This document shows, in pieces, positions 940 to 9,624 of a stretch of DNA of 9,624 bases (its first letter is position 1; each line of letters starts with the position of its first letter). The stretch comes from Candidatus Omnitrophota bacterium. GTDB taxonomy: Bacteria; Omnitrophota; Gorgyraeia; 2-01-FULL-45-10. Below the pieces are notes generated by a model. That model saw nothing but the letters and a program-made list of their open reading frames with translations, was not told the DNA's origin and ran no database searches. Both the position numbers and the translations under genes were made by a program. The stretch covers positions 1 through 9,624 of the forward strand of contig JAMWCX010000005.1 of NCBI GenBank assembly GCA_023818895.1, written 5' to 3'.

Positions 940-1407
940 TTATTCTTCAACAGCTTCTACCTTCACGTTGAAAGTGGTGCCTCTGACTCCGACTATGGAA
1001 GTCGGTGTCTTCACCTCGAATTTTGATTTCTCACCATGTACCTTTTGGGCCTTAATGAGAACTTCTCCCATTGCCAGGTCCAGTAATGTCTTGCTGCTCT
1101 CCGATTTGGGATCTATCAAAAGTTCGGCCAGTAGCATCTGAGAATTTTCCTTTATCTCGACTGTCGCCGTTTGTCCCTTACCGTCGACATTCAGAAGTAC
1201 CCATGAGGCCGAAGCCGTCTTGATAGTGTCTCCCTCGTTGAGGACCATGCCCACACTTGCCGGTTTCCAGCTTGATTGTCCTGCTGGTTTTATTTCAGCG
1301 GACCCGTCAATGCTTACGATCTGGGCTGTGCGTTTCTCCATCGCGAAAGCGCATACCGCCATGGTAAGAATCAAAACCATTATACACGCTATCCTCAAAA
1401 TCTTCAT
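940..1407 (-). CDS. Secreted FecR-domain protein (155 aa from the SD-supported start)
   Basis: Signal peptide MKILRIACIMVLILTMAVCAFA. FecR-domain pattern GDTIKT...WVLLNVDG...TATVEIKENSQMLL...LDLAMGEVLIKA...FEVKTPTSIVGVRGTTFNVKV. GGAGG lies 6 nt upstream of ATG 1407. The predicted TSS from the 1428-1456 promoter falls downstream of the longer ORF start at 1428. Confidence 0.85.
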   Translation of the reverse strand: MKILRIACIMVLILTMAVCAFAMEKRTAQIVSIDGSAEIKPAGQSSWKPASVGMVLNEGDTIKTASASWVLLNVDGKGQTATVEIKENSQMLLAELLIDPKSESSKTLLDLAMGEVLIKAQKVHGEKSKFEVKTPTSIVGVRGTTFNVKVEAVEE

Positions 1408-1427
1408 CTTTTTCACCTCCCTAAACA

Positions 1428-1456
1428 AATATACCCTAAAATATGTGAAAAGTCAA
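1428..1456 (-). promoter_or_regulatory. sigma70-type promoter for the FecR-domain gene
   Basis: On the minus strand: TTGACT (1456-1451), 17-nt spacer, TATATT (1433-1428). Confidence 0.6.
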
Positions 1457-1604: not shown

Positions 1605-3710
1605 TTGCCGTTACTGATAGCCATCATATCCTTCCTTTCCCTACAGCTTTTGACCGCTTGCATTTGGGCACAGCCACCTGCTCCACCCGCGGGAGCGGTG
1701 CAGTCTGCCTTACGGGAGACCACTAGAGATGTTCGCGGCAAAGTTGAAGAAAAGCTCGAAGAACGGCCTACCAAGCCGCCGCAACTAAAGGAAGAAATAG
1801 CTGAAGAGGTTGTGGAAGGGCCTAAATTTCTGGCCAAAAAGATAGAGCTTGTGGGGGTCAAGAGCTTTCCCGTAGAGGAGTTTTCGAAACTTGTCCAGAA
1901 GTATGAGAATAGGGAAGTTTCGATAGCTGAACTTAAGATACTGGCTAAAGAAATAGAAAGAGATTATCTAAGGAAGGGTGTGATAGCCGCCTGTTTTATA
2001 CCGCCGCAGGATGTCAAAGAGGGAGTTGTTTCGATGCGGGTGGTGGAAGCCAAGATGGGAGAACTGCAGATAAAACAGGGTAAATACTTTTCAAAGAAAA
2101 GGACAGAATATTACTGGAGAATTCCTGAGAATGAGGTGTTAAGATACGATCGTATATCCCGAAGCCTGCAATTCATGAATAAAAATCCTGACAGGAATGT
2201 CAAGGCTGCTCTTCACGCCGGCAAGAAACCGGAGACTACCGATGTTCTGCTTGATGTAGCTACGAATTTCCCGTTGCATGTAACGGCTACACTTGACAAC
2301 GAAGGTGCCCCCTCCACGGGCAAGATAAGAAGTGGAGTCGGATTCGTCGAGAATAATTTTGTCGGCCTTGATGATACCCTTCTGGGTGGTTATACCGGCG
2401 GCAAGAATTTCGGCGGCATATATGTATACCACCGCGTTCCAATAACCAATTTCGGAACGACCATCCTATACGGCTACAGCCAAACCCGCTCATTCCCCAA
2501 GAAAGATTATGCCCCCTTTGAGATAAGCTCAAGACAGGAAAACTATAGCGTGTTCCTTTATCAAGACCTATTCTATAAGGACGAATACAAAGGCGAAGTC
2601 TCCGCTGGTGTGGATATGAGCAACAAACGGGTGGTATCTGGTGCTGGAGGCGACCTTAATGTCGATAGGCTCAGGGTGCTGAGCGGCTCATTTACCCTGA
2701 TAGGCAAAGGAATGGGGAATTCGACGAGCATAAAGCCCTCAATATATCAGGGCTTGAACTGGTTGGGCGCTCGAAGGCAGAGTCGATTTTCTTCTCGCCA
2801 GGCGCAGAATACCTTTACCAAGGCGACTTTAAATATGAACTTCAGACAAGCGTTGGTGAAGAACTTCCAGGCCAGCGTAAAATTCAACGGACAATGGGCC
2901 TCGGAAAAACTTATGCCGCAACAGGAGATGTATCTTGGAGGCATAGATTCGATCAGGGGTTATCCTTCCGGCGACTACCTTGCGGATAGCGGTTTTTATT
3001 CAAACTGGGAACTTTTAGTCCCGGCCTTCTTCCTACCAGAATGGGTAAGGATACCATACGGTGAGAGGCCGCTTAAGGATGAGATAACAGGCGTCGTATT
3101 CTTCGATTGGGGCTACGGAATGAAAAGAGGGAATATCCAAGGTGAGCAGACATCTCGCAGGATGGCATCGGTTGGCATTGGCGGCAGGGTCAGGCTTCTG
3201 AATCAGGCCATGCTGAGAGTTGAATGGGGTGCGCCGCTCGATCCTCTCGTGAATGGTCCCCTTACGGAATGGAGCCGTTCGCGCGTTCATGTCTCGCTTG
3301 ATTTTCAGGATGATCTGCCGGAGGAGGTTGAGCGTTTCCAAAAAGTCCAAAAGGAAGAGTACATGAAGGATGCCGCCTGGAAAATAGTGAATGATGAGAT
3401 GAAAAATCCTAATAGCCCTTTGCGCGCCGCTATATATAAGTATTTTGCGAAAGCAAAGCATGCCCAGGCCAAGGGGGATTTAGAGTCTGCGCGTGAAAAT
3501 TACGGTAAAGTTATTTCTATAGGGGAGAATGTTTATCGTCAGGCCGAGGCGTATGTTAGAGAAAGCTACAAACAGATAGATGCCCTGCATAAACTTGAAG
3601 AAGAAGCGCAAGAATATCTAAAGAAAGGTGATGTGGCGAAAGCCAAAGAAGCTTGGCATAAGATCATTGAAGAAGGGAAACCAAAGCCGCTCGTTCTGGA
3701 ATTTATATAA
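1605..3710 (+). CDS. ShlB/FhaC/HecB-family TpsB outer-membrane transporter (POTRA domains plus Omp85-type barrel) with a 134-aa C-terminal helical extension
   Basis: Signal peptide ...LLIAIISFLSLQLLTACIWAQ. POTRA-like region IELVGVKSFPVEEFSKLV...DYLRKGVIAACFIPPQDVKEGVVSMRVVEAKMG. Barrel region LDNEGAPSTGKIRSGVGFVENNFVGLDDTL.... Conserved Omp85 loop-6 motif GGIDSIRGYPSG. The barrel ends with an aromatic residue, RVHVSLDF, followed by an extra tail (nt 3306-3707). The true start may be the non-canonical CTG 1581 or ATT 1578 (see findings). Confidence 0.9.
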   Translation: MPLLIAIISFLSLQLLTACIWAQPPAPPAGAVQSALRETTRDVRGKVEEKLEERPTKPPQLKEEIAEEVVEGPKFLAKKIELVGVKSFPVEEFSKLVQKYENREVSIAELKILAKEIERDYLRKGVIAACFIPPQDVKEGVVSMRVVEAKMGELQIKQGKYFSKKRTEYYWRIPENEVLRYDRISRSLQFMNKNPDRNVKAALHAGKKPETTDVLLDVATNFPLHVTATLDNEGAPSTGKIRSGVGFVENNFVGLDDTLLGGYTGGKNFGGIYVYHRVPITNFGTTILYGYSQTRSFPKKDYAPFEISSRQENYSVFLYQDLFYKDEYKGEVSAGVDMSNKRVVSGAGGDLNVDRLRVLSGSFTLIGKGMGNSTSIKPSIYQGLNWLGARRQSRFSSRQAQNTFTKATLNMNFRQALVKNFQASVKFNGQWASEKLMPQQEMYLGGIDSIRGYPSGDYLADSGFYSNWELLVPAFFLPEWVRIPYGERPLKDEITGVVFFDWGYGMKRGNIQGEQTSRRMASVGIGGRVRLLNQAMLRVEWGAPLDPLVNGPLTEWSRSRVHVSLDFQDDLPEEVERFQKVQKEEYMKDAAWKIVNDEMKNPNSPLRAAIYKYFAKAKHAQAKGDLESARENYGKVISIGENVYRQAEAYVRESYKQIDALHKLEEEAQEYLKKGDVAKAKEAWHKIIEEGKPKPLVLEFI

Positions 3711-3743
3711 TTGTATATGAATTTTTAGGGAAGGAATGGTGAA

Positions 3744-4952
3744 ATGACCAAAATAAAGATATTAGTCATAACCACGGTGATGTGCGCTTTTGCGCTTGGC
3801 AGTGTTTGGGCTCAAGGAACATCGGAGGGTTCGCGACAGGAATCTGCGAATCAGGTAAGACTGGAAGTGAGCGATAAGATTCTTGATAAAGATTTGCCGT
3901 CATATAAGACGAATCTCAAAGAGATAGTTCGCGAAGCCGAATATAATCTAAAACGGATAGACGGCACCCTTAGAGAGAGGGATAACGAAAAAATCGCTAA
4001 AGAAAAGTTTGAAAGGGCCAACGAACTTGTTAAAGAAGGTAAGTTTGAAGAAGCCAAAAATGAATATGAGGCAGCTAAAAAACTTACAACTAACATGGAC
4101 TTCAAGAGAACGATTAAAGAAAGCGAGCAAAAAATAGCCTCTAAAGCGAATGAACAGGAGCGCGACCGGCTGGCTAAAGAAAGGATGCAGGCAGGCGCCG
4201 GGGCCAAAGAAATAATTACAAAAAAAACCTCCGAAGAGGGGAAGGTTGTTGCGCAACCAATTGTAGAGAAAGAAGTTAGGACTAAGCCTGCTGCAAAGAA
4301 GCAACCCGCCGCGCCAGTAGTCACTGAAAAGCGGTACGGTACCGAGGTAGGTATGAAGAGTCGGGTTGACAAGGGCGTTATTAGTGCCACTCCGAGCGCG
4401 AAGAAGGCGACGTCTGTTAAACAGGTAACGTCGGTGAAGGTGGTCGATCAGGCTGAAGCTAAAGCGAAGGCGGAAGTAGAGGCTAAAGCGCGCGAAGAGG
4501 CCGCCGTTAAGGCCAGGTTGGAGGCCGAAGCAAAAGCCAGGGAAGAAGCTGCCGCAAAGGCGAGGATGGAGGCCGAAACAAGAGCGCGCGAAGAAGCCGC
4601 TGCAAGGGCGAAGGCCGAGGCTGAAGCGAAGGCAAGGGCAGAAGCAGAGGCTAAAGCTAAGGCTGAAGCGGAAGCGAAGGCAAGAGAGGCCGCCGCGGCC
4701 GCCAAGGCAGCGGCAGAAGCGCCGAAACCGGCGCCAGCCGTTGTCTCTACACCGGCACCCGCAGCGGCTCCGAGTAAGACTGTGGCGGAAACCGAAGATA
4801 TATCCGGCCTTTACAGGGAGGCGGTTTCCTTATACTGGGATAATAAATATGAAGAAGCGAAGGCCAAGTTTGAGCAGGTTCAGAAGATAGCTTCTGATTA
4901 CGCGCGAACTTCTTATTATCTCGGCCGGATTAAGGAGAAGTTGGGGAAGTAG
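3744..4952 (+). CDS. Secreted coiled-coil protein with an Ala/Glu/Lys-rich repeat core and TPR-like helical ends (hypothetical; TPS-locus accessory)
   Basis: SD AAGGA lies 8 nt upstream of ATG 3744, and the gap after tpsB is only 33 nt with no terminator. Signal peptide MTKIKILVITTVMCAFALGSVWA/QG. Long charged helical sequence with an EAKAREEAAxKAR repeat core. The C-terminal YREAVSLYWDNKYEEAKAKFEQVQKI...YYLGRI is TPR-like. Confidence 0.8.
   Translation: MTKIKILVITTVMCAFALGSVWAQGTSEGSRQESANQVRLEVSDKILDKDLPSYKTNLKEIVREAEYNLKRIDGTLRERDNEKIAKEKFERANELVKEGKFEEAKNEYEAAKKLTTNMDFKRTIKESEQKIASKANEQERDRLAKERMQAGAGAKEIITKKTSEEGKVVAQPIVEKEVRTKPAAKKQPAAPVVTEKRYGTEVGMKSRVDKGVISATPSAKKATSVKQVTSVKVVDQAEAKAKAEVEAKAREEAAVKARLEAEAKAREEAAAKARMEAETRAREEAAARAKAEAEAKARAEAEAKAKAEAEAKAREAAAAAKAAAEAPKPAPAVVSTPAPAAAPSKTVAETEDISGLYREAVSLYWDNKYEEAKAKFEQVQKIASDYARTSYYLGRIKEKLGK
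4452..4721 (+). repeat. Intragenic low-complexity tandem repeat encoding (E-A-K/R-A)n helices, with an imperfect period of about 48 nt
   Basis: Translation AEAKAKAEVEAKAREEAAVKARLEAEAKAREEAAAKARMEAETRAREEAAARAKAEAEAKARAEAEAKAKAEAEAKAREAAAAAKAAAEA. This region produces the antisense shadow ORF 4448..4705. Confidence 0.85.
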
Positions 4953-5397
4953 GTTTTTCTTCCTTTGGCAGGTTTTCCGATATTCTTTTTAAAATGTTGA
5001 TGTTCTCAGGATTTTCAGCGATGAGCCGTATATAACGGTCCATCGCTTTATTTTGTAAATAAAGACCCTTTTCCCACCTGAGATAACTCTTTTTACCAAC
5101 GCCCAAAAGGTCTGCCATCTCTTCTTGTGTGTAACCCAACTTTTGACGTATTTCCTTTAGTTGTTCCATAGTTAGAAGGCCGCGTTTTTTGTGTTTTTCA
5201 GCTTGAACGCGGTTTAAGGCTTCTTTTGGCAGGAACTCCTCTTTACATTTATTGCATCTTTTGATATTTAGATTTTTAACAACGAGTTTAATATTACGAG
5301 TTCCTTCCCGGAAATATGTCTCATGATCTGATATCTCGTCTTCCAGATATCCATCATTGCACAGCGGGCATTTTACTTTTTCTTTATTTTCAGGCAT
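4930..5397 (-). CDS. MqsA-family zinc-ribbon plus XRE-type HTH protein (antitoxin-like transcriptional regulator), with no adjacent toxin gene
   Basis: From ATG 5397: MPENKEKVKCPLCNDGYLEDEISDHETYFREGTRNIKLVVKNLNIKRCNKCKEEF, which has CxxC...CxxC. The HTH is LTMEQLKEIRQKLGYTQEEMADLLGVGKKSYLRWEKGLYLQNKAMDRYIRLIAENPENINIL. The layout is collinear with E. coli MqsA. The upstream TTG 5448 would add an implausible 17 aa. The 3' end overlaps the convergent gene by 23 nt. Confidence 0.85.
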   Translation of the reverse strand: MPENKEKVKCPLCNDGYLEDEISDHETYFREGTRNIKLVVKNLNIKRCNKCKEEFLPKEALNRVQAEKHKKRGLLTMEQLKEIRQKLGYTQEEMADLLGVGKKSYLRWEKGLYLQNKAMDRYIRLIAENPENINILKRISENLPKEEKPTSPTSP

Positions 5398-5409
5398 ATT
5401 ATCTTTTTT

Positions 5410-5425
5410 GGTATCAATTGATACC
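5410..5425. promoter_or_regulatory. Perfect 16-bp palindrome, a candidate operator in the MqsA-like gene's leader
   Basis: GGTATCAATTGATACC equals its own reverse complement. It lies between the predicted -10 (5435-5430) and ATG 5397 on the minus strand. Confidence 0.6.
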
Positions 5426-5429
5426 GACA

Positions 5430-5458
5430 AATATATCACTAAAATCAAGTTTTGGCAA
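5430..5458 (-). promoter_or_regulatory. sigma70-type promoter for the MqsA-like gene
   Basis: On the minus strand: TTGCCA (5458-5453), 17-nt spacer, TATATT (5435-5430). Confidence 0.55.
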
Positions 5459-5574: not shown

Positions 5575-5678
5575 GCTATGGCTTATAAGAAGATCATCAT
5601 ATTCGGGATTTTCACCAGTGCAAATTCGAGAATTTTAATGATATATCGGTTAAATATAAAAAAGGAAGATATAATATA

Positions 5679-5706
5679 TTGACAATTAAAATAGTTAAGA
5701 TATACT
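5679..5706 (+). promoter_or_regulatory. Strong sigma70-type promoter driving the long tpsA1 leader
   Basis: -35 TTGACA (5679-5684), 16-nt spacer, -10 TATACT (5701-5706). An A/T-rich UP-like stretch lies upstream. The predicted TSS is near 5713, about 320 nt before the tpsA1 start. Confidence 0.7.
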
Positions 5707-5759
5707 TAAATTGTAAAAAGGAGTTCTTTACAATAAGGAGTTCGCTTATTCTCTTAAGC

Positions 5760-5910
5760 GATAATGGCAAACTTAGCGAAAGCTAAGGACGCCCTGCACC
5801 CATACGTGGTACAGGGCCGGGAATCAGACGAAATTCTGATTCACGGCAAAGCTCTAGAGCCTAACCTCCGATGAGAGTCGGAGCATGGCAGTCAGTTGCC
5901 GAAATAAGAG
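5760..5910 (+). promoter_or_regulatory. Candidate riboswitch aptamer, c-di-GMP-I (GEMM-I)-like with a two-hairpin insertion
   Basis: GGCAAAC (5766-5772), then hairpin cttagc-GAAA-gctaag (5772-5787), then GACGC (5788-5792). Two extra hairpins follow (5792-5816 and 5821-5842). Then ACG-GCAAAGC (5843-5852), receptor-like CCTAAC (5860-5865) and CATGG (5884-5888) flanking hairpin ctccga/tcggag (5866-5883), and finally CAG-TCAG-TTGCCGAAA (5889-5904). Compared from memory with the V. cholerae Vc2 aptamer (GGCAAACC-auuc-GAAA-gagu-GGGACGCAAAGCC...CCUAAACC...GGUAGGUAGCGGGGUUACCGA). Confidence 0.5.
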
Positions 5911-5925
5911 ATTTTTTGTTTCTGG

Positions 5926-5976
5926 CGGGACAGTTTCCTTCTTGATAAAAAATACAACTCATAGGAAACTATCCCG
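5926..5976 (+). repeat. Long leader hairpin whose arms are diverged copies of the GGAGRCGGTTTCCAA family
   Basis: cgggacagtttcct (5926-5939) pairs with aggaaactatcccg (5963-5976). 13 of 14 positions pair. The loop is 23 nt and A-rich. Confidence 0.7.
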
Positions 5977-5984
5977 GTCGCGAT

Positions 5985-6027
5985 ACCCGCGGTTTCGGCA
6001 ATTGTGTCGAGCTGCGGGTTTTTGTTT
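5985..6027 (+). terminator. Intrinsic terminator (attenuator) immediately upstream of the tpsA1 RBS
   Basis: Lower stem acccgcgg (5985-5992) / ctgcgggt (6012-6019). Upper stem ttcggc (5994-5999) / gtcgag (6006-6011). Loop aattgt. U-tract tttt-g-ttt (6020-6027). The SD aagg (6028-6031) and ATG 6035/6041 follow directly. Confidence 0.8.
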
Positions 6028-6034
6028 AAGGCGG

Positions 6035-7705
6035 ATGAAAATGAAAAAAAATAAACAATTTAAAAAATGGACGCAACGCGAGAAGAAAAATGCGACGGTG
6101 TTTTTCTGCCTGGTCGCTGTTTTCTTTATGAATCTTTTATACGCTAATAGCATCGCTGCGCTCCCTAAGGATTATGAAGTCGCCGCCGGCAGTGCCGAAT
6201 TTCATGTGCAGGAAAATACCCTTACCGTAACTGCCTCTGACAAAGCTATCATAAATTATAAGTCCTTCGATATTGCACAGAATGAGAAGGTTATATTCAA
6301 TCTGCCTACGACTACGAGCGCAGTACTTAACAGGGTTCATTCTCCGGATCCGACGAATATACAGGGCCTTCTGCAGTGTAACGGAATCTTTATACTAGTT
6401 AATCAGTCCGGCATATACGTGGCCCCTGGCGCCAACGTGAACGCGGCGAGCATGATCCTTTCAACAAGAGACATCAATAATTCAGACTTCCTGGCCGGTC
6501 GGTATTCCTTCCACAAGGTATCCCAGAATGGGTTCGACATGTTGCTCCTTAATGAGGGCAATCTCGCCGTTTCGAAAGGCGGTTTCCTTGCCCTGGTGGC
6601 GGGCGCGATAGAGAATAAGGGTGTCATAACCGCCAGATCGGGGACGATTGCTCTGGCAGCAGGAAATGCCGTTAAGTTCGAGATAGCCGGAAACAATATG
6701 ATCTCGGTGGCGGTCACGGAGCCTGTCGCCGAGCAGATCCTGGATTTTGAAGGCAAGCCTGTTAAGGATCAGATCAAGAACACCGGCTCTCTTAACGCGG
6801 AAGGCGGCACTATTATACTTAAAGCCGAAAGCGTTGCCGATATCTTCATAAACGCGGTCAATCTTGAGGGAGTGGTCAATGCTGAGAGGGTCGAATGCAA
6901 GGATGGAGGTGTAAGTATAATCGCAGGCGGCAAGGTTGAGATACCCGCTGAACAGATAATCACAACGCGCCTTGAGGTATTCGCTAAAGAACTCGTAATG
7001 CTGCCGCCACGGATACCTGAGAGAGTCATAGACGGCGACGTCGATGTGAATACGGCTGAGGCGCTTCATATCATGCCGTCAGAACCCGCGCAAGTCATTA
7101 AGGCCGAGGAATCGATAACGATATTTGCCGAGAAGGCGATTGAAGTCGCGTCAACGATAGAAACGCCGACAGTTACGCTGGTATCAGGCGATATGGTAGA
7201 TACGCGCGGCGCCGCCATCGTCCAGGGAACGAATTTTAATTTAAGGGCTAATAGATTCGGAAAGTATGAAACGCCTGTTAAGATACAGGCCGAGAATAGT
7301 TATGTTAATGGATTTAATAAAAATATAGATATTCGTGAGGCATTAGGAATCGGCACGTCCTTTTTGATACGCGGGCCTCCGGATGAGGGCTTTGGAGCCA
7401 TTGAATACAACCGAAACCTTTCGCGTCTTACGCTGGAGGCGGAAGATGTAATTCTTTCCGTAACAAATCCTGTTTATGTAGATGGTCATTTGATACTTTC
7501 CAATTTCCTGGGCTTGATTCCTTTTATATATCTTTTATCCAAAGGTAATAATATCGTTTTCCCTATTGTGAATGGAGTAAGTCTCCTGCCATTTTTCGTG
7601 GCGCACTTAATCGTGATTAAAACTATGAGTAGGGCTGGTAGGATATGCGCCGGATTATGCGCGGTTGGGATACGACAGGAGCTTAAATTAGTAGAAAGGG
7701 GGTGA
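6035..7705 (+). CDS. TpsA-family exoprotein, short paralog (filamentous-haemagglutinin N-terminal / haemagglutination-activity TPS domain); 556 aa
   Basis: Signal peptide MKMKKNKQFKKWTQREKKNATVFFCLVAVFFMNLLYANSIAA. TPS domain NYKSFDIAQNEKVIFNLPTTTSAVLNRVHSPDPTNIQGLLQCNGIFILVNQSGIYVAPGANVNAASMILSTRDI. The ORF-track start at 5885 would translate through the structured leader and terminator and has no SD. ATG 6035 or 6041 follows aaggcgg. The last 70 aa or so are atypical (see findings). Confidence 0.85.
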   Translation: MKMKKNKQFKKWTQREKKNATVFFCLVAVFFMNLLYANSIAALPKDYEVAAGSAEFHVQENTLTVTASDKAIINYKSFDIAQNEKVIFNLPTTTSAVLNRVHSPDPTNIQGLLQCNGIFILVNQSGIYVAPGANVNAASMILSTRDINNSDFLAGRYSFHKVSQNGFDMLLLNEGNLAVSKGGFLALVAGAIENKGVITARSGTIALAAGNAVKFEIAGNNMISVAVTEPVAEQILDFEGKPVKDQIKNTGSLNAEGGTIILKAESVADIFINAVNLEGVVNAERVECKDGGVSIIAGGKVEIPAEQIITTRLEVFAKELVMLPPRIPERVIDGDVDVNTAEALHIMPSEPAQVIKAEESITIFAEKAIEVASTIETPTVTLVSGDMVDTRGAAIVQGTNFNLRANRFGKYETPVKIQAENSYVNGFNKNIDIREALGIGTSFLIRGPPDEGFGAIEYNRNLSRLTLEAEDVILSVTNPVYVDGHLILSNFLGLIPFIYLLSKGNNIVFPIVNGVSLLPFFVAHLIVIKTMSRAGRICAGLCAVGIRQELKLVERG

Positions 7706-7760
7706 TGAAAATGTTGCGTAGCAAATGGCAAAAAATAGGTTCCAGGCATGATGATGACGG

Positions 7761-7829
7761 GAGGCGGTTTCCAAGGTGTAGTGGAGGCGGTTTCCAAGTT
7801 GTGGTGGAGACGGTTTCCAATAGGAGTAG
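7761..7829 (+). repeat. Three tandem 23-bp direct repeats of the GGAGRCGGTTTCCAA family upstream of tpsA2
   Basis: gaggcggtttccaaggtgtagtg (7761-7783), gaggcggtttccaagttgtggtg (7784-7806), gagacggtttccaataggagtag (7807-7829). Units 1 and 2 differ at 2 of 23 positions. The 14-15 nt core is conserved in unit 3. Confidence 0.9.
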
Positions 7830-7866
7830 GAGATTTGAAGATATGCTTCGAAAGGAGGCGATCGCC

Positions 7867-9624
7867 ATGAAAACTAATAATCTTTTGATGGTAAATGGTA
7901 TAAATAGGAAATTGATAAGCTATCTTAACAGGATAGTGGCGATTCTCCTTGTGATAACATTTGCCTCATCCCAGGTGGTATATCCGCTTCCTCAGGACCC
8001 GCAGATAGAGGAAGGAACGGCTACCATACATGTCGATGGAAGCACCATGACTATAAACGCTCAGGACAAGACCGTCATAAATTATTCTTCCTTCAATATA
8101 GGAGCAAACGAAGCGGTCATAGTGACGCTGCCTAACGTAAATAGCTCTATATTGAACAGGGATATCGGAGGGAGTGTCTCCAATCTTGCAGGTCTTTTAC
8201 AGTCGAATGGTCTATTTATCTTGATTAATCCGGCAGGTATCTATGTGGCACCTACAGCGAATATAAACGTGGGAAGCATTGTCCTTTCCACAAGAGATAT
8301 AAACTCTAAAGACTTCATCAACTCAAACTACGTATTCCAGAAGATATCGAGAGAGCAGCTCGACGCTTTGCTACTGAACGCCGGGACCATAAATATAACT
8401 CGGGGTGGTTTCGGCGTTCTGATAGCGGGTGCCGTCGAAAACAAGGGCATAATCACTGCCCCTGTGGGGAAAATTACTCTTGCATCAGGAGACGCGGTTA
8501 AGCTCGACATAGGGGGAGACGGACTTATATCTGTCGCCATAGAGGAGAAGGCGGCCTCAAAAGTCTATGACTTCCAGGGCAGGCCCATCACCGACGCCAT
8601 CAAGAACTCAGGCACCCTGAAAGCTGACGGCGGAGTGGTGACCCTGAAGGCGGAGGCGCTTACCGACGTATTCACGAAGGCCATCAACCTTGAAGGGCTG
8701 ACACAGGCAACGACACTTGACAGCACAAAAGGTGAGGTGAGACTCGTCTCGGACGGGGCGATACAGAATACAGGCACTATCAACACCAACACCCTGACAG
8801 AGAAAGGAGCCTCGTTCAAGGCGAGCGGGACTATAACGGGAGGGGATGCCTATTATGACAATGAGGACGGGGCGATGGTTATAAACGGCCCCATAAATAT
8901 CGGTTCCAACCAGTATGACAACGGAAACATCATAATAAATGGTGCCGTTACTCTTATCGCTAATAACCTGACCTTTGCCGCTGATAATGACAATGACCGA
9001 TCCGGCGTCTTCTACATGAATACGGGCGCTAGAATCGACGGAGGTTCTTCCACTAAATATAACCTTACGATAAAGAGTGGCAATACCGCGGCAGCCGGAG
9101 AGGGCATAGATGGTCAGGCGCCCAAGCTTGAGAATATCTCCAATATCGGAACCATTACATTTGACAAGTCCACAGGCTCAACTCCTACCTACACCTCAAA
9201 TAGCTCCGCAGAATTCAGCGTAAATACGGTCAAGACCGTTTACGGGACCAAACTCTCCCGCGATGTTACAGACGGCGGCTATCATATGATCTACTCGGTC
9301 TCCGATGCGCCGGGCGGACTGCAATTGATGCAGAATAACCTCGGCTGGAATTACAAGCTCGCCAATGACATAGACGCGAGCGAGACTGAGCTTTGGAATG
9401 GCGGAGCGGGGTTTGTGCCAGTGGGAACATTCACTGGAACTTTTGACGGAAGCGGATGTGAGATTACGGGGCTTTATATTAACCGGTATGGCACAATGGA
9501 GCCGAAGAACGGCCTATTTGGAGAAACATCGGGCGCGACAGTGCGCAATGTCGGGCTTAAGTCAGCATTTGTCAAAGGTGGTAGCCAGACGGGAGGGCTA
9601 ATAGGATGGATGTGGGGTGGTGGT
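7867..9624 (+). CDS. TpsA-family large exoprotein/adhesin, 5' partial relative to window end (TPS domain, then beta-helix-like repeats, then GLUG-motif region). The reading frame stays open to the window end
   Basis: Not in the supplied ORF track because it has no stop in the window. My translation gives 586 codons with no stop. AAAGGAGG lies 8 nt upstream of ATG 7867. Sequence: MKTNNLLMVNGINRKLISYLNRIVAILLVITFASSQVVYPLPQDPQIEEGTATIHVDGSTMTINAQDKTVINYSSFNIGANEAVIVTLPNVNSSILNRDIGGSVSNLAGLLQSNGLFILINPAGIYVAPTANINVGSIVLSTRDIN.... Later comes NYKLANDIDASETELWNGGAGFVPVGTFTGTFDGSGCEITGLYINR...GLFGETSGATVRNVGLKSAFVKGGSQTGGLIGW, which is GLUG-type. About half the residues are identical to tpsA1 across the TPS domain, judged by eye. 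Confidence 0.9.
   Translation, partial: MKTNNLLMVNGINRKLISYLNRIVAILLVITFASSQVVYPLPQDPQIEEGTATIHVDGSTMTINAQDKTVINYSSFNIGANEAVIVTLPNVNSSILNRDIGGSVSNLAGLLQSNGLFILINPAGIYVAPTANINVGSIVLSTRDINSKDFINSNYVFQKISREQLDALLLNAGTINITRGGFGVLIAGAVENKGIITAPVGKITLASGDAVKLDIGGDGLISVAIEEKAASKVYDFQGRPITDAIKNSGTLKADGGVVTLKAEALTDVFTKAINLEGLTQATTLDSTKGEVRLVSDGAIQNTGTINTNTLTEKGASFKASGTITGGDAYYDNEDGAMVINGPINIGSNQYDNGNIIINGAVTLIANNLTFAADNDNDRSGVFYMNTGARIDGGSSTKYNLTIKSGNTAAAGEGIDGQAPKLENISNIGTITFDKSTGSTPTYTSNSSAEFSVNTVKTVYGTKLSRDVTDGGYHMIYSVSDAPGGLQLMQNNLGWNYKLANDIDASETELWNGGAGFVPVGTFTGTFDGSGCEITGLYINRYGTMEPKNGLFGETSGATVRNVGLKSAFVKGGSQTGGLIGWMWGGG

Follow-up and report, generated by a model that had tools for sequence, protein, structure and literature searches.

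GEMM-I ranks among the most thoroughly studied riboswitch folds, with a P2-AAA-P3 junction that is considered nearly invariant; the linker between P1a and P1b is likewise said to be almost invariant in the original description of GEMM. The described relatives c-di-GMP-I-GGC (RF03167), c-di-GMP-I-UAU and GEMM-Ib, which belong to the same fold family (clan CL00126), to our knowledge carry substitutions in the ligand pocket and keep a normal three-helix architecture. Here, we analyze the 5' leader of a tpsA gene, encoding a secreted adhesin of two-partner secretion (TPS), from an Omnitrophota bacterium; the window, that is the whole stretch of DNA that was analyzed, comprises 9,624 nt. A GEMM-I element is present in this leader, and positions 5750-5917 (plus strand) quite probably form a type-1 GEMM-I aptamer (c-di-GMP-I, RF01051), the sensor for c-di-GMP (cyclic diguanosine monophosphate), as an architectural variant with a two-hairpin insert. 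Unlike the GGC, UAU and GEMM-Ib variants, the tpsA leader thus combines a canonical pocket with a changed architecture, and some of its relatives carry an A at position 20 (A20). A search of the literature, with subscription journals mostly outside its coverage, found no description of GEMM-I with junction insertions and none of GEMM-I in Omnitrophota.

The comparison is made to the type-1 aptamer Vc2 of Vibrio cholerae, with numbering following PMC11705072 (G20, G21, C22, the A25-G42 pair, the C44-G83 inter-arm pair, G45 and C92). Like Vc2, the tpsA leader has G20, A47 and C92, C44/G83, the AAA/GAC internal loop, a P2 capped by a GAAA tetraloop, a receptor-like CCUAA/(C)AUGG in P3, a P1 enclosing the aptamer and an association with surface and adhesion genes; unlike Vc2, its GAC-GC-AAAGC is split by a 55-nt module, with a predicted four-helix junction as the result. 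Tandem GEMM-I riboswitches such as Bc3-5 of Bacillus thuringiensis (PMC4759541) also show two adjacent GEMM-I-like matches in one leader, but these are complete aptamers in series, whereas the tpsA leader contains a single 3' half, a single P1 and one set of pocket residues.

The GEMM-I element of the tpsA leader

A scan of the whole window against Rfam with default filters gave no match. With permissive filters, cmscan matched RF01051 at 5805-5903 (40.8 bits against a cut-off of 35, E = 1.2e-6, full model length) and again at 5756-5803 (33 bits, E = 9.4e-5), the second match covering the 5' half only and skipping 44 model positions. These two were the only significant Rfam matches in the window, and no other family fell below E = 0.09 in the sensitive cmscan. 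A match to LOOT RNA (21 bits, cut-off 46.4) was set aside, as it is explained by shared similarity of the tetraloop-receptor hairpin. The original prediction, made from the sequence alone, had proposed a GEMM-I aptamer with its halves split by two hairpins; the covariance model recovers the class above its cut-off, although with permissive filters and in a register different from the predicted one. Once the insert (5791-5845) was excised, the core scored 63.6 bits (E = 1.2e-20) across positions 3-89 of 89 in a profile hidden Markov model (HMM) of 51 canonical GEMM-I sequences, and the remaining spliced variants discussed below reached 36-66 bits against the same HMM. The fold of 5740-5920 is also more stable than those of shuffled sequences (z = -5.3).

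By alignment at the sequence level, the pocket residues G20, A47 and C92 correspond to g5766, a5848 and c5899, and the bridge C44-G83 to c5790 and g5891. The earlier assignment of C92 was therefore right, whereas those of G20 and A47 (g5767 and a5849) have to be moved. The trio is the canonical GAC combination, because of which the altered ligand specificity suggested in the original prediction finds no support in the window; the G at 5766 also differs from the A at position 20 that we take to be the signature associated with GEMM-Ib selective for cyclic GMP-AMP (cGAMP).

The 5' half of the aptamer (5766-5790, plus strand; the 33-bit cmscan match) reads GGCAAAC-CUUAGC-GAAA-GCUAAG-GAC, with G20 at 5766, G21/C22 at 5767-5768, AAA at 5769-5771, the P2 hairpin CUUAGC-GAAA-GCUAAG at 5772-5787 and G42-A43-C44 at 5788-5790. 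The 3' half (5846-5897, plus strand, from the cmscan alignment) contains G45/C46 at 5846-5847, A47-A49 at 5848-5850, P3 at 5850-5897 with its distal hairpin at 5866-5883, the receptor-like strands CCUAAC (5860-5865) and CAUGG (5884-5888), another type-1 feature alongside P2, and A82/G83 at 5890-5891; the letters over 5843-5902 are ACGGCAAAGC...CCUAAC...CAUGGCAGUCAGUUGCCGA. It is followed at 5898-5911 (plus strand) by GCCGA, which holds C92 and the P1 3' strand (C5900 and G5901), then AAA and the 3' strand UAAGAGA of a P1 extension (5905-5911). All strings of the original prediction are found where it had placed them: the halves at 5766-5792 and 5843-5902, the hairpins at 5792-5816 and 5821-5842, ACAGGGC at 5811-5817 and an open reading frame (ORF) at 5764-5874.

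The contiguous three-helix junction, which would require GACGCAAAGC to be unbroken, is interrupted by 55 nt (5791-5845) between GAC and GC, and the element is therefore an architectural variant and not a plain member of GEMM-I. The insert lies between the equivalents of C44 (c5790) and G45 (g5846) on the 3' strand of the P2 arm; an insert had been predicted, but with a length of about 50 nt and a position after GACGC. As far as can be read from the sequence, a four-helix junction thereby takes the place of the AAA/GAC internal loop of P2, and the pocket, C44/G83, the GAAA tetraloop, the receptor and P1 stay intact; the variant RNA should retain c-di-GMP binding.

Conservation of the core was assessed in an alignment of 24 spliced or canonical cores, in which compensatory changes were found in the core helices. 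The short helix G21-C46/C22-G45, when formed with the dinucleotide after the insert, is paired in 100% and shows four CG to UA double changes. P2 is paired in 95.8%, with double changes at six of its six pairs, and the P3 pairs are kept in 99-100%, although the search pattern had set some of them in advance. Taken together, 85.6% of all cells are paired versus 72.3% in shuffles (0/500 shuffles reach the observed value; slid controls give 23-39%). C44 and G83 are invariant in all 24 cores, and G20, A47-A49 and C92 are invariant or nearly so.

The two-hairpin module and its recurrence

TpsA homologs (35-52% identity), almost all from Omnitrophota metagenome-assembled genomes (MAGs), were traced to their encoding contigs for comparison of the leaders, and further leaders came from RNA-pattern scans of metagenomes and of GTDB genomes, the latter with 16 matches, mostly labelled Omnitrophota. 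Scans of genome and metagenome contigs guided by the TpsA protein returned no relatives. Of the distinct sequences in which a 3' half can be recognised, 65 have a canonical junction and nine a two-hairpin insert at the C44/G45 bond, namely the window and the loci L129, L002, L006, L044, L135, L138, L140 and L141; the eight leaders other than the window come from Omnitrophota-type MAGs wherever this is identifiable. Together with the score of the spliced core, their use of the same bond upholds the split aptamer as predicted.

L129 (the closest homolog), L002 and L006 share the layout of the window, with a canonical 5' half, two hairpins, (G/A)C-AAAGC and the 3' half. The exact insertion bond is fixed by L044, since the CU before its insert is unable to pair with G21/C22 whereas the GC after it can. 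L006 shows a compensatory change, in which GGC to GGU on the 5' side is matched by GC to AC after the insert.

Other leaders differ in various ways. L132 is a textbook aptamer (76.3 bits). The junction of L004 is canonical, with ~65-77 additional nt at the tip of P3; this leader scores 48.5 bits against RF03167, below the cut-off of 59. The leaders of the TpsA homologs L130, L131, L005, L007 and L008 are without a GEMM-I match. In L129, whose TpsA is the closest homolog (52% identity), positions 277-313 keep the P2 GAAA, and P3 is capped early as GCCC-CAUGU-GGGC, without the CCUAA/UAUGG receptor. In L144 (~5592-5720, minus strand), a TpsA gene is preceded by P2 and a GEMM-I 3' half, and in place of the usual GGCAAA 5' junction, or ahead of it, there is a hairpin-rich stretch of ~80 nt, which may be another type of insertion or a decayed aptamer. 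The A20 is also found in many gut-metagenome loci, e.g., L011 and L020, and is seen in L129 at ~208-212 and in L132 at ~825 (..AAUAGCAAAC.. / ..CUAGCAAAA..).

The module of the window (5791-5845) folds by itself as two abutting hairpins (-25.1 kcal/mol, z = -5.3), and the same fold is obtained with the GEMM-I core enforced. Hairpin 1 (HP1; 5791-5817, plus strand) is GCCCUG.CACC...GGU.ACAGGGC, and hairpin 2 (HP2; 5818-5845, plus strand), which cmscan takes for P2, is CG.GAAUCAGA-CGAAAU-UCUGAUUC.CG. Of 13 modules from different leaders, 12 fold end to end as two abutting hairpins with a linker of 0-3 nt (z from -2.5 to -7.6), an architecture adopted by only ~10% of shuffles. Insert lengths range from 40 to 73 nt, and the hairpin sequences are mostly unrelated between lineages, with the two-hairpin fold retained; between the module stems of L129 and L002, pairing is preserved via wobble changes.

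Two alternative sites are occupied in other loci. In L145 and L148, and similarly in L139, a module follows C22, on the opposite strand of the AAA/GAC internal loop; it lies inside the aptamer because in L145 and L148 the covarying P1 extension adjoins the upstream copy of GGC. In L134 and L148, a module follows nt 53 on the 5' strand of P3, opposite A82/G83, so that L148 carries two modules. As C44 pairs with G83 across the arms, all three insertion bonds flank a single inter-arm contact.

We consider the module most likely to be a peripheral structural element. HP1 and HP2 would stack on each other and leave the interrupted P2 arm coaxial in a four-way junction, whereas a single inserted hairpin would give a three-way junction, which would be more likely to bend the arm. 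Lineage-specific helices at solvent-exposed positions of a conserved core are familiar from the variable stems of twister ribozymes and the peripheral extensions of cobalamin riboswitches. Unlike these, the addition to GEMM-I is always an abutting hairpin pair, occurs at three backbone positions round one contact and is gained or lost as a unit.

The variants do not cluster, and their nearest cores are canonical (L044 to L136, 91%; L006 to L083, 80%; the window to L137, 75%). L145 (272-333, minus strand) and L148 (1274-1420, minus strand) are paralogs within one Omnitrophota MAG (JAGOLR01) with cores 98% identical; their C22-site modules are 96.6% identical, and the second, 54-nt module in P3 is found only in L148, indicating that a whole module was recently gained or lost. 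The modules of L006 (2767-2831) and L134 (6297-6353, minus strand) are related (UCCCGACGUU..GUCGGGA(U/C)CCCGACCG..CGUCGGG). No other two modules are as similar (z = 7.1), yet these are sited after C44 and after nt 53, respectively, in different genomes. The HP1 and HP2 arms are nearly alike within each of L006, L044, L134 and L140. The pentamer GAAAU, picked out post hoc, recurs in modules of the window (5825-5836), L002 (~3731-3741), L140, L006 and L148; in the window, L002 and L140 it lies in hairpin loops. These patterns of gain and loss suggest that the two-hairpin unit behaves as a discrete cassette. A further-reaching proposal, which we regard as doubtful, would have a transferable RNA plug-in repeatedly colonizing the inter-arm cleft of GEMM-I in Omnitrophota at the three C44-G83 sites and adding a function of its own, such as binding of a protein or a second ligand, or gating of the co-transcriptional folding between P2 and P3; a riboswitch would then have evolved in modular fashion through a mobile structural cassette.

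Expression platform and gene context

A promoter-like TTGACA-16 nt-TATACT lies at 5679-5706 (plus strand; 11/12 consensus matches), and a TTGAC(T/A)-17-TATACT is seen at the equivalent position in L002, L004 and L006, with only the TATACT -10 hexamer in L129. Given this strong sigma-70-like site, the leader RNA probably begins near 5713. In the minimum free energy (MFE) fold, it contains a 5' hairpin, CGCUUA-UUCUCU-UAAGCG (5742-5761, plus strand), which holds the 5' strands of both P1 and the P1 extension and is a candidate anti-P1; its stem covaries (CGCUU/AAGCG in L129, UCGGU/ACCGA in L002 and L004). The strands in question span 5750-5760 (plus strand). P1 is formed by the pairs C5759-G5901 and G5760-C5900, followed by a small internal loop and the 7-bp extension of UCUCUUA (5750-5756) with 5905-5911, which also forms in the unconstrained MFE of 5740-5917. 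Across leaders, the extension is realized by six distinct complementary pairs (CUCUUA/UAAGAG, AAUCUAU/AUAGAUU, CUCUAU/AUAGGG, GUUAUAU/AUAUAAC, AAAGUA/UACUUU and UCUUUGU/ACAAAGA).

Directly 3' of the extension is a U6 tract (5912-5917, plus strand), with which it forms a candidate ligand-stabilized intrinsic terminator. A U-tract occupies the same place in L129, L002, L004, L137 and L133, and follows after a 2-nt UA spacer in L105 and L135; in L133 and L137 there is no other terminator ahead of the gene. Binding of c-di-GMP would stabilize P1 and its extension over the competing 5' hairpin, and the stabilized extension with U6 would act as an intrinsic terminator. Because U6 follows the extension directly, the bound state is proposed as the terminator, by which high c-di-GMP would lower tpsA transcription. 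c-di-GMP-dependent control of tpsA transcription is likely; its OFF direction we put forward tentatively. The proposed logic is like that of Cd1 of Clostridioides difficile, a GEMM-I transcriptional OFF switch in which the bound aptamer favours termination (PMC9262584). Cd1, however, uses a separate downstream terminator hairpin and an antiterminator invading the aptamer, whereas the tpsA leader would use the P1 extension with U6 and a 5' hairpin competitor.

Further downstream, predicted folds contain a long hairpin, GGGACAGUUUCC...GGAAACUAUCCC (5929-5976, plus strand), and another hairpin, the second to resemble a terminator, ACCCGCGG...CUGCGGGU with UUUUU behind it (5985-6023, plus strand); a hairpin of the latter type with a U-run is homologous in L129 and analogous in L002, L004 and L006. 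Within 5898-5926, when P1 is unformed, GCCGAAAUAAGA can pair with UUUUGUUUCUGGC, including the U-tract, which would hide C92 and the P1 3' strand; in L129 and L002 this local pairing is weak or missing.

The element thus sits between a promoter-like site and a TPS-domain gene on the same strand. This gene, the short tpsA-1 (6041-7705, plus strand; 554 aa), is preceded by a Shine-Dalgarno-like GGCGGA (6030-6035), and its product has a TPS secretion domain (Pfam PF05860, 94.8 bits), in agreement with the predicted location of the element ahead of a TpsA gene; an identical protein is encoded in the Candidatus Omnitrophica MAG GCA_023818765.1 (JAMWDH010000023.1). A second TPS-domain gene (7711-9624, plus strand; PF05860 in the matching contig L001) starts 6 nt after tpsA-1, runs to the end of the window and probably shares an operon with it; no second riboswitch was found before this gene (7600-8000) nor elsewhere in the window. 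The ~590-nt gap that contains the leader is bounded upstream by a divergent gene for an MqsA-like helix-turn-helix protein (4930-5448, minus strand), beside which no MqsR-like toxin gene was seen. Before it lie genes for an Ala/Lys/Glu-rich protein of 402 aa that matches TPR weakly (3744-4952), a TpsB-type outer-membrane transporter with POTRA_2 and ShlB domains, the partner of TpsA (1605-3710, plus strand), a FecR-domain protein (940-1428, minus strand) and MscL (mscL, 425-748). The order of TpsB, an Ala/Lys/Glu-rich protein of ~390-400 aa, a divergent MqsA-like protein, the leader and TpsA is shared by the window, L002 and L004, and other members of the family precede genes for TpsA, type IV pilin-like and LamG surface proteins. 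A tRNA-like match at 60-117 (27 bits, cut-off 29), where ARAGORN finds no tRNA, is probably noise.

Alternative readings and significance

Several observations weigh against a type-1 aptamer with a two-hairpin insert that controls tpsA. In nearest-neighbor energy, the enforced canonical core is at -55.8 kcal/mol against -65.8 kcal/mol for the MFE, a gap that is usual for aptamers held by tertiary contacts, and binding could be lost through an insert that lies 2 bp from the ligand pocket. The binomial P of about 1e-11 for the two-hairpin architecture is favored by module boundaries drawn by eye, and the clustering of the three sites in three dimensions follows from published contacts, not from coordinates. 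Regarding the platform, duplex energies of cognate versus non-cognate strands of the P1 extension do not differ significantly (p = 0.065); many leaders have identical or A/U-rich strands, and the case for covariation is made by the six distinct pairs. The extension stem has only two G-C pairs and closes a 'loop' of ~150 nt, atypical for an intrinsic terminator, and since the 5985-6023 hairpin forms in every thermodynamic fold, with no antiterminator identified, the regulatory logic is incomplete. The top-scoring Rfam alignment, finally, sits in a different register, with HP2 as P2. Taken at face value, it would place the whole aptamer at 5805-5903, with ACAGGGC (5811-5817) as the 5' junction strand and 5821-5842 as P2, and would leave 5766-5792 as the orphan remnant of an upstream aptamer without a 3' half, which is what the degenerate tandem duplication entertained in the original prediction amounts to. 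This register covers the full model length above the cut-off, the 5821-5842 hairpin has a GAAA-containing loop and GGC...GC flanks, and enforcing it is cheap (-63.6 kcal/mol against the MFE). It nevertheless demands 3-nt insertions on both sides of its 'P2', forfeits the AAA/GAC internal loop, closes the tetraloop with a C-U mismatch and puts G20/G21 (5815-5816) within the stable HP1. Against the HMM, it reaches 35.7 bits over positions 15-89 only, compared with the full-length match of the spliced reading. The homologs argue against it as well: it leaves 4 nt for P2 in L002 and L129, there is no tetraloop hairpin at that place in L044, L135, L138, L140 and L141, and the covarying P1 and its extension lie directly 5' of the upstream half (5750-5760) and not beside 5811, all of which make this register very unlikely. 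That the RNA instead encodes a 36-codon peptide, for which an ATG..TGA frame is present at 5764-5874, is so improbable as to be almost negligible. Its ATG belongs to the AAUGGC of the aptamer consensus and has no Shine-Dalgarno sequence ahead of it, and the frame is not conserved, with no start codon at that place in L129 (ACUAGC) or in L002 and L138 (AAAGGC) and with inserts whose lengths differ by non-multiples of three.

The remaining alternatives accept the split aptamer and concern the module. It might be a mobile or recombining cassette, similar to miniature inverted-repeat transposable elements or repetitive extragenic palindromic sequences, that is merely tolerated and functionless. 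The near-identical arms in L006, L044, L134 and L140 resemble repeated palindromes with terminal inverted repeats, and the relatedness of the L006 and L134 modules, the whole-module difference between the L145/L148 paralogs and the scattering of variants among canonical cores would all fit such an element. Inverted-repeat arms are present, as expected of any hairpin pair. However, BLAST and regular-expression searches of the 148 loci (4-10 kb available per genome) found no further copy of a module or arm, and no consistent target-site duplication flanks the modules. The end-to-end two-hairpin fold is maintained by sequences unrelated across most lineages, and stem pairing is kept through wobble changes between L129 and L002. 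The one bond shared by nine leaders and the three sites flanking one tertiary contact suggest selection on structure. We therefore consider a functionless cassette unlikely; it should be noted that this possibility bears on where the module came from and would not conflict with a functional riboswitch. A sensor for another ligand, such as 3'3'-cGAMP or a different dinucleotide, or for a second input received through the inserted hairpins, is brought to mind by the position of the insert 2 bp from the pocket and by the A at the G20 position in the relatives L129, L132, L135 and L105. As A20 occurs whether or not a leader carries a module, it is independent of the insertion; the pocket of the window is canonical, and no conserved sequence motif could be made out among the module loops, all of which renders a changed or second ligand highly improbable.

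The riboswitch class is known, but the GEMM-I with a two-hairpin insert is a structural variant new to it. A natural four-helix junction 2 bp from the pocket, recurring in a candidate phylum, shows where the GEMM-I fold tolerates or exploits expansion, and the variant offers a natural system for testing what the C44-G83 bridge and the docking of the arms contribute to binding. That whole modules come and go between paralogs with 98% identity prompts the question of how modules of structured RNA travel. As the default Rfam scan missed the aptamer of the tpsA leader, the c-di-GMP regulons of Omnitrophota may be under-called, and in this lineage, which is uncultured and poorly understood, the family ties c-di-GMP signalling to adhesins of two-partner secretion and to pilins.

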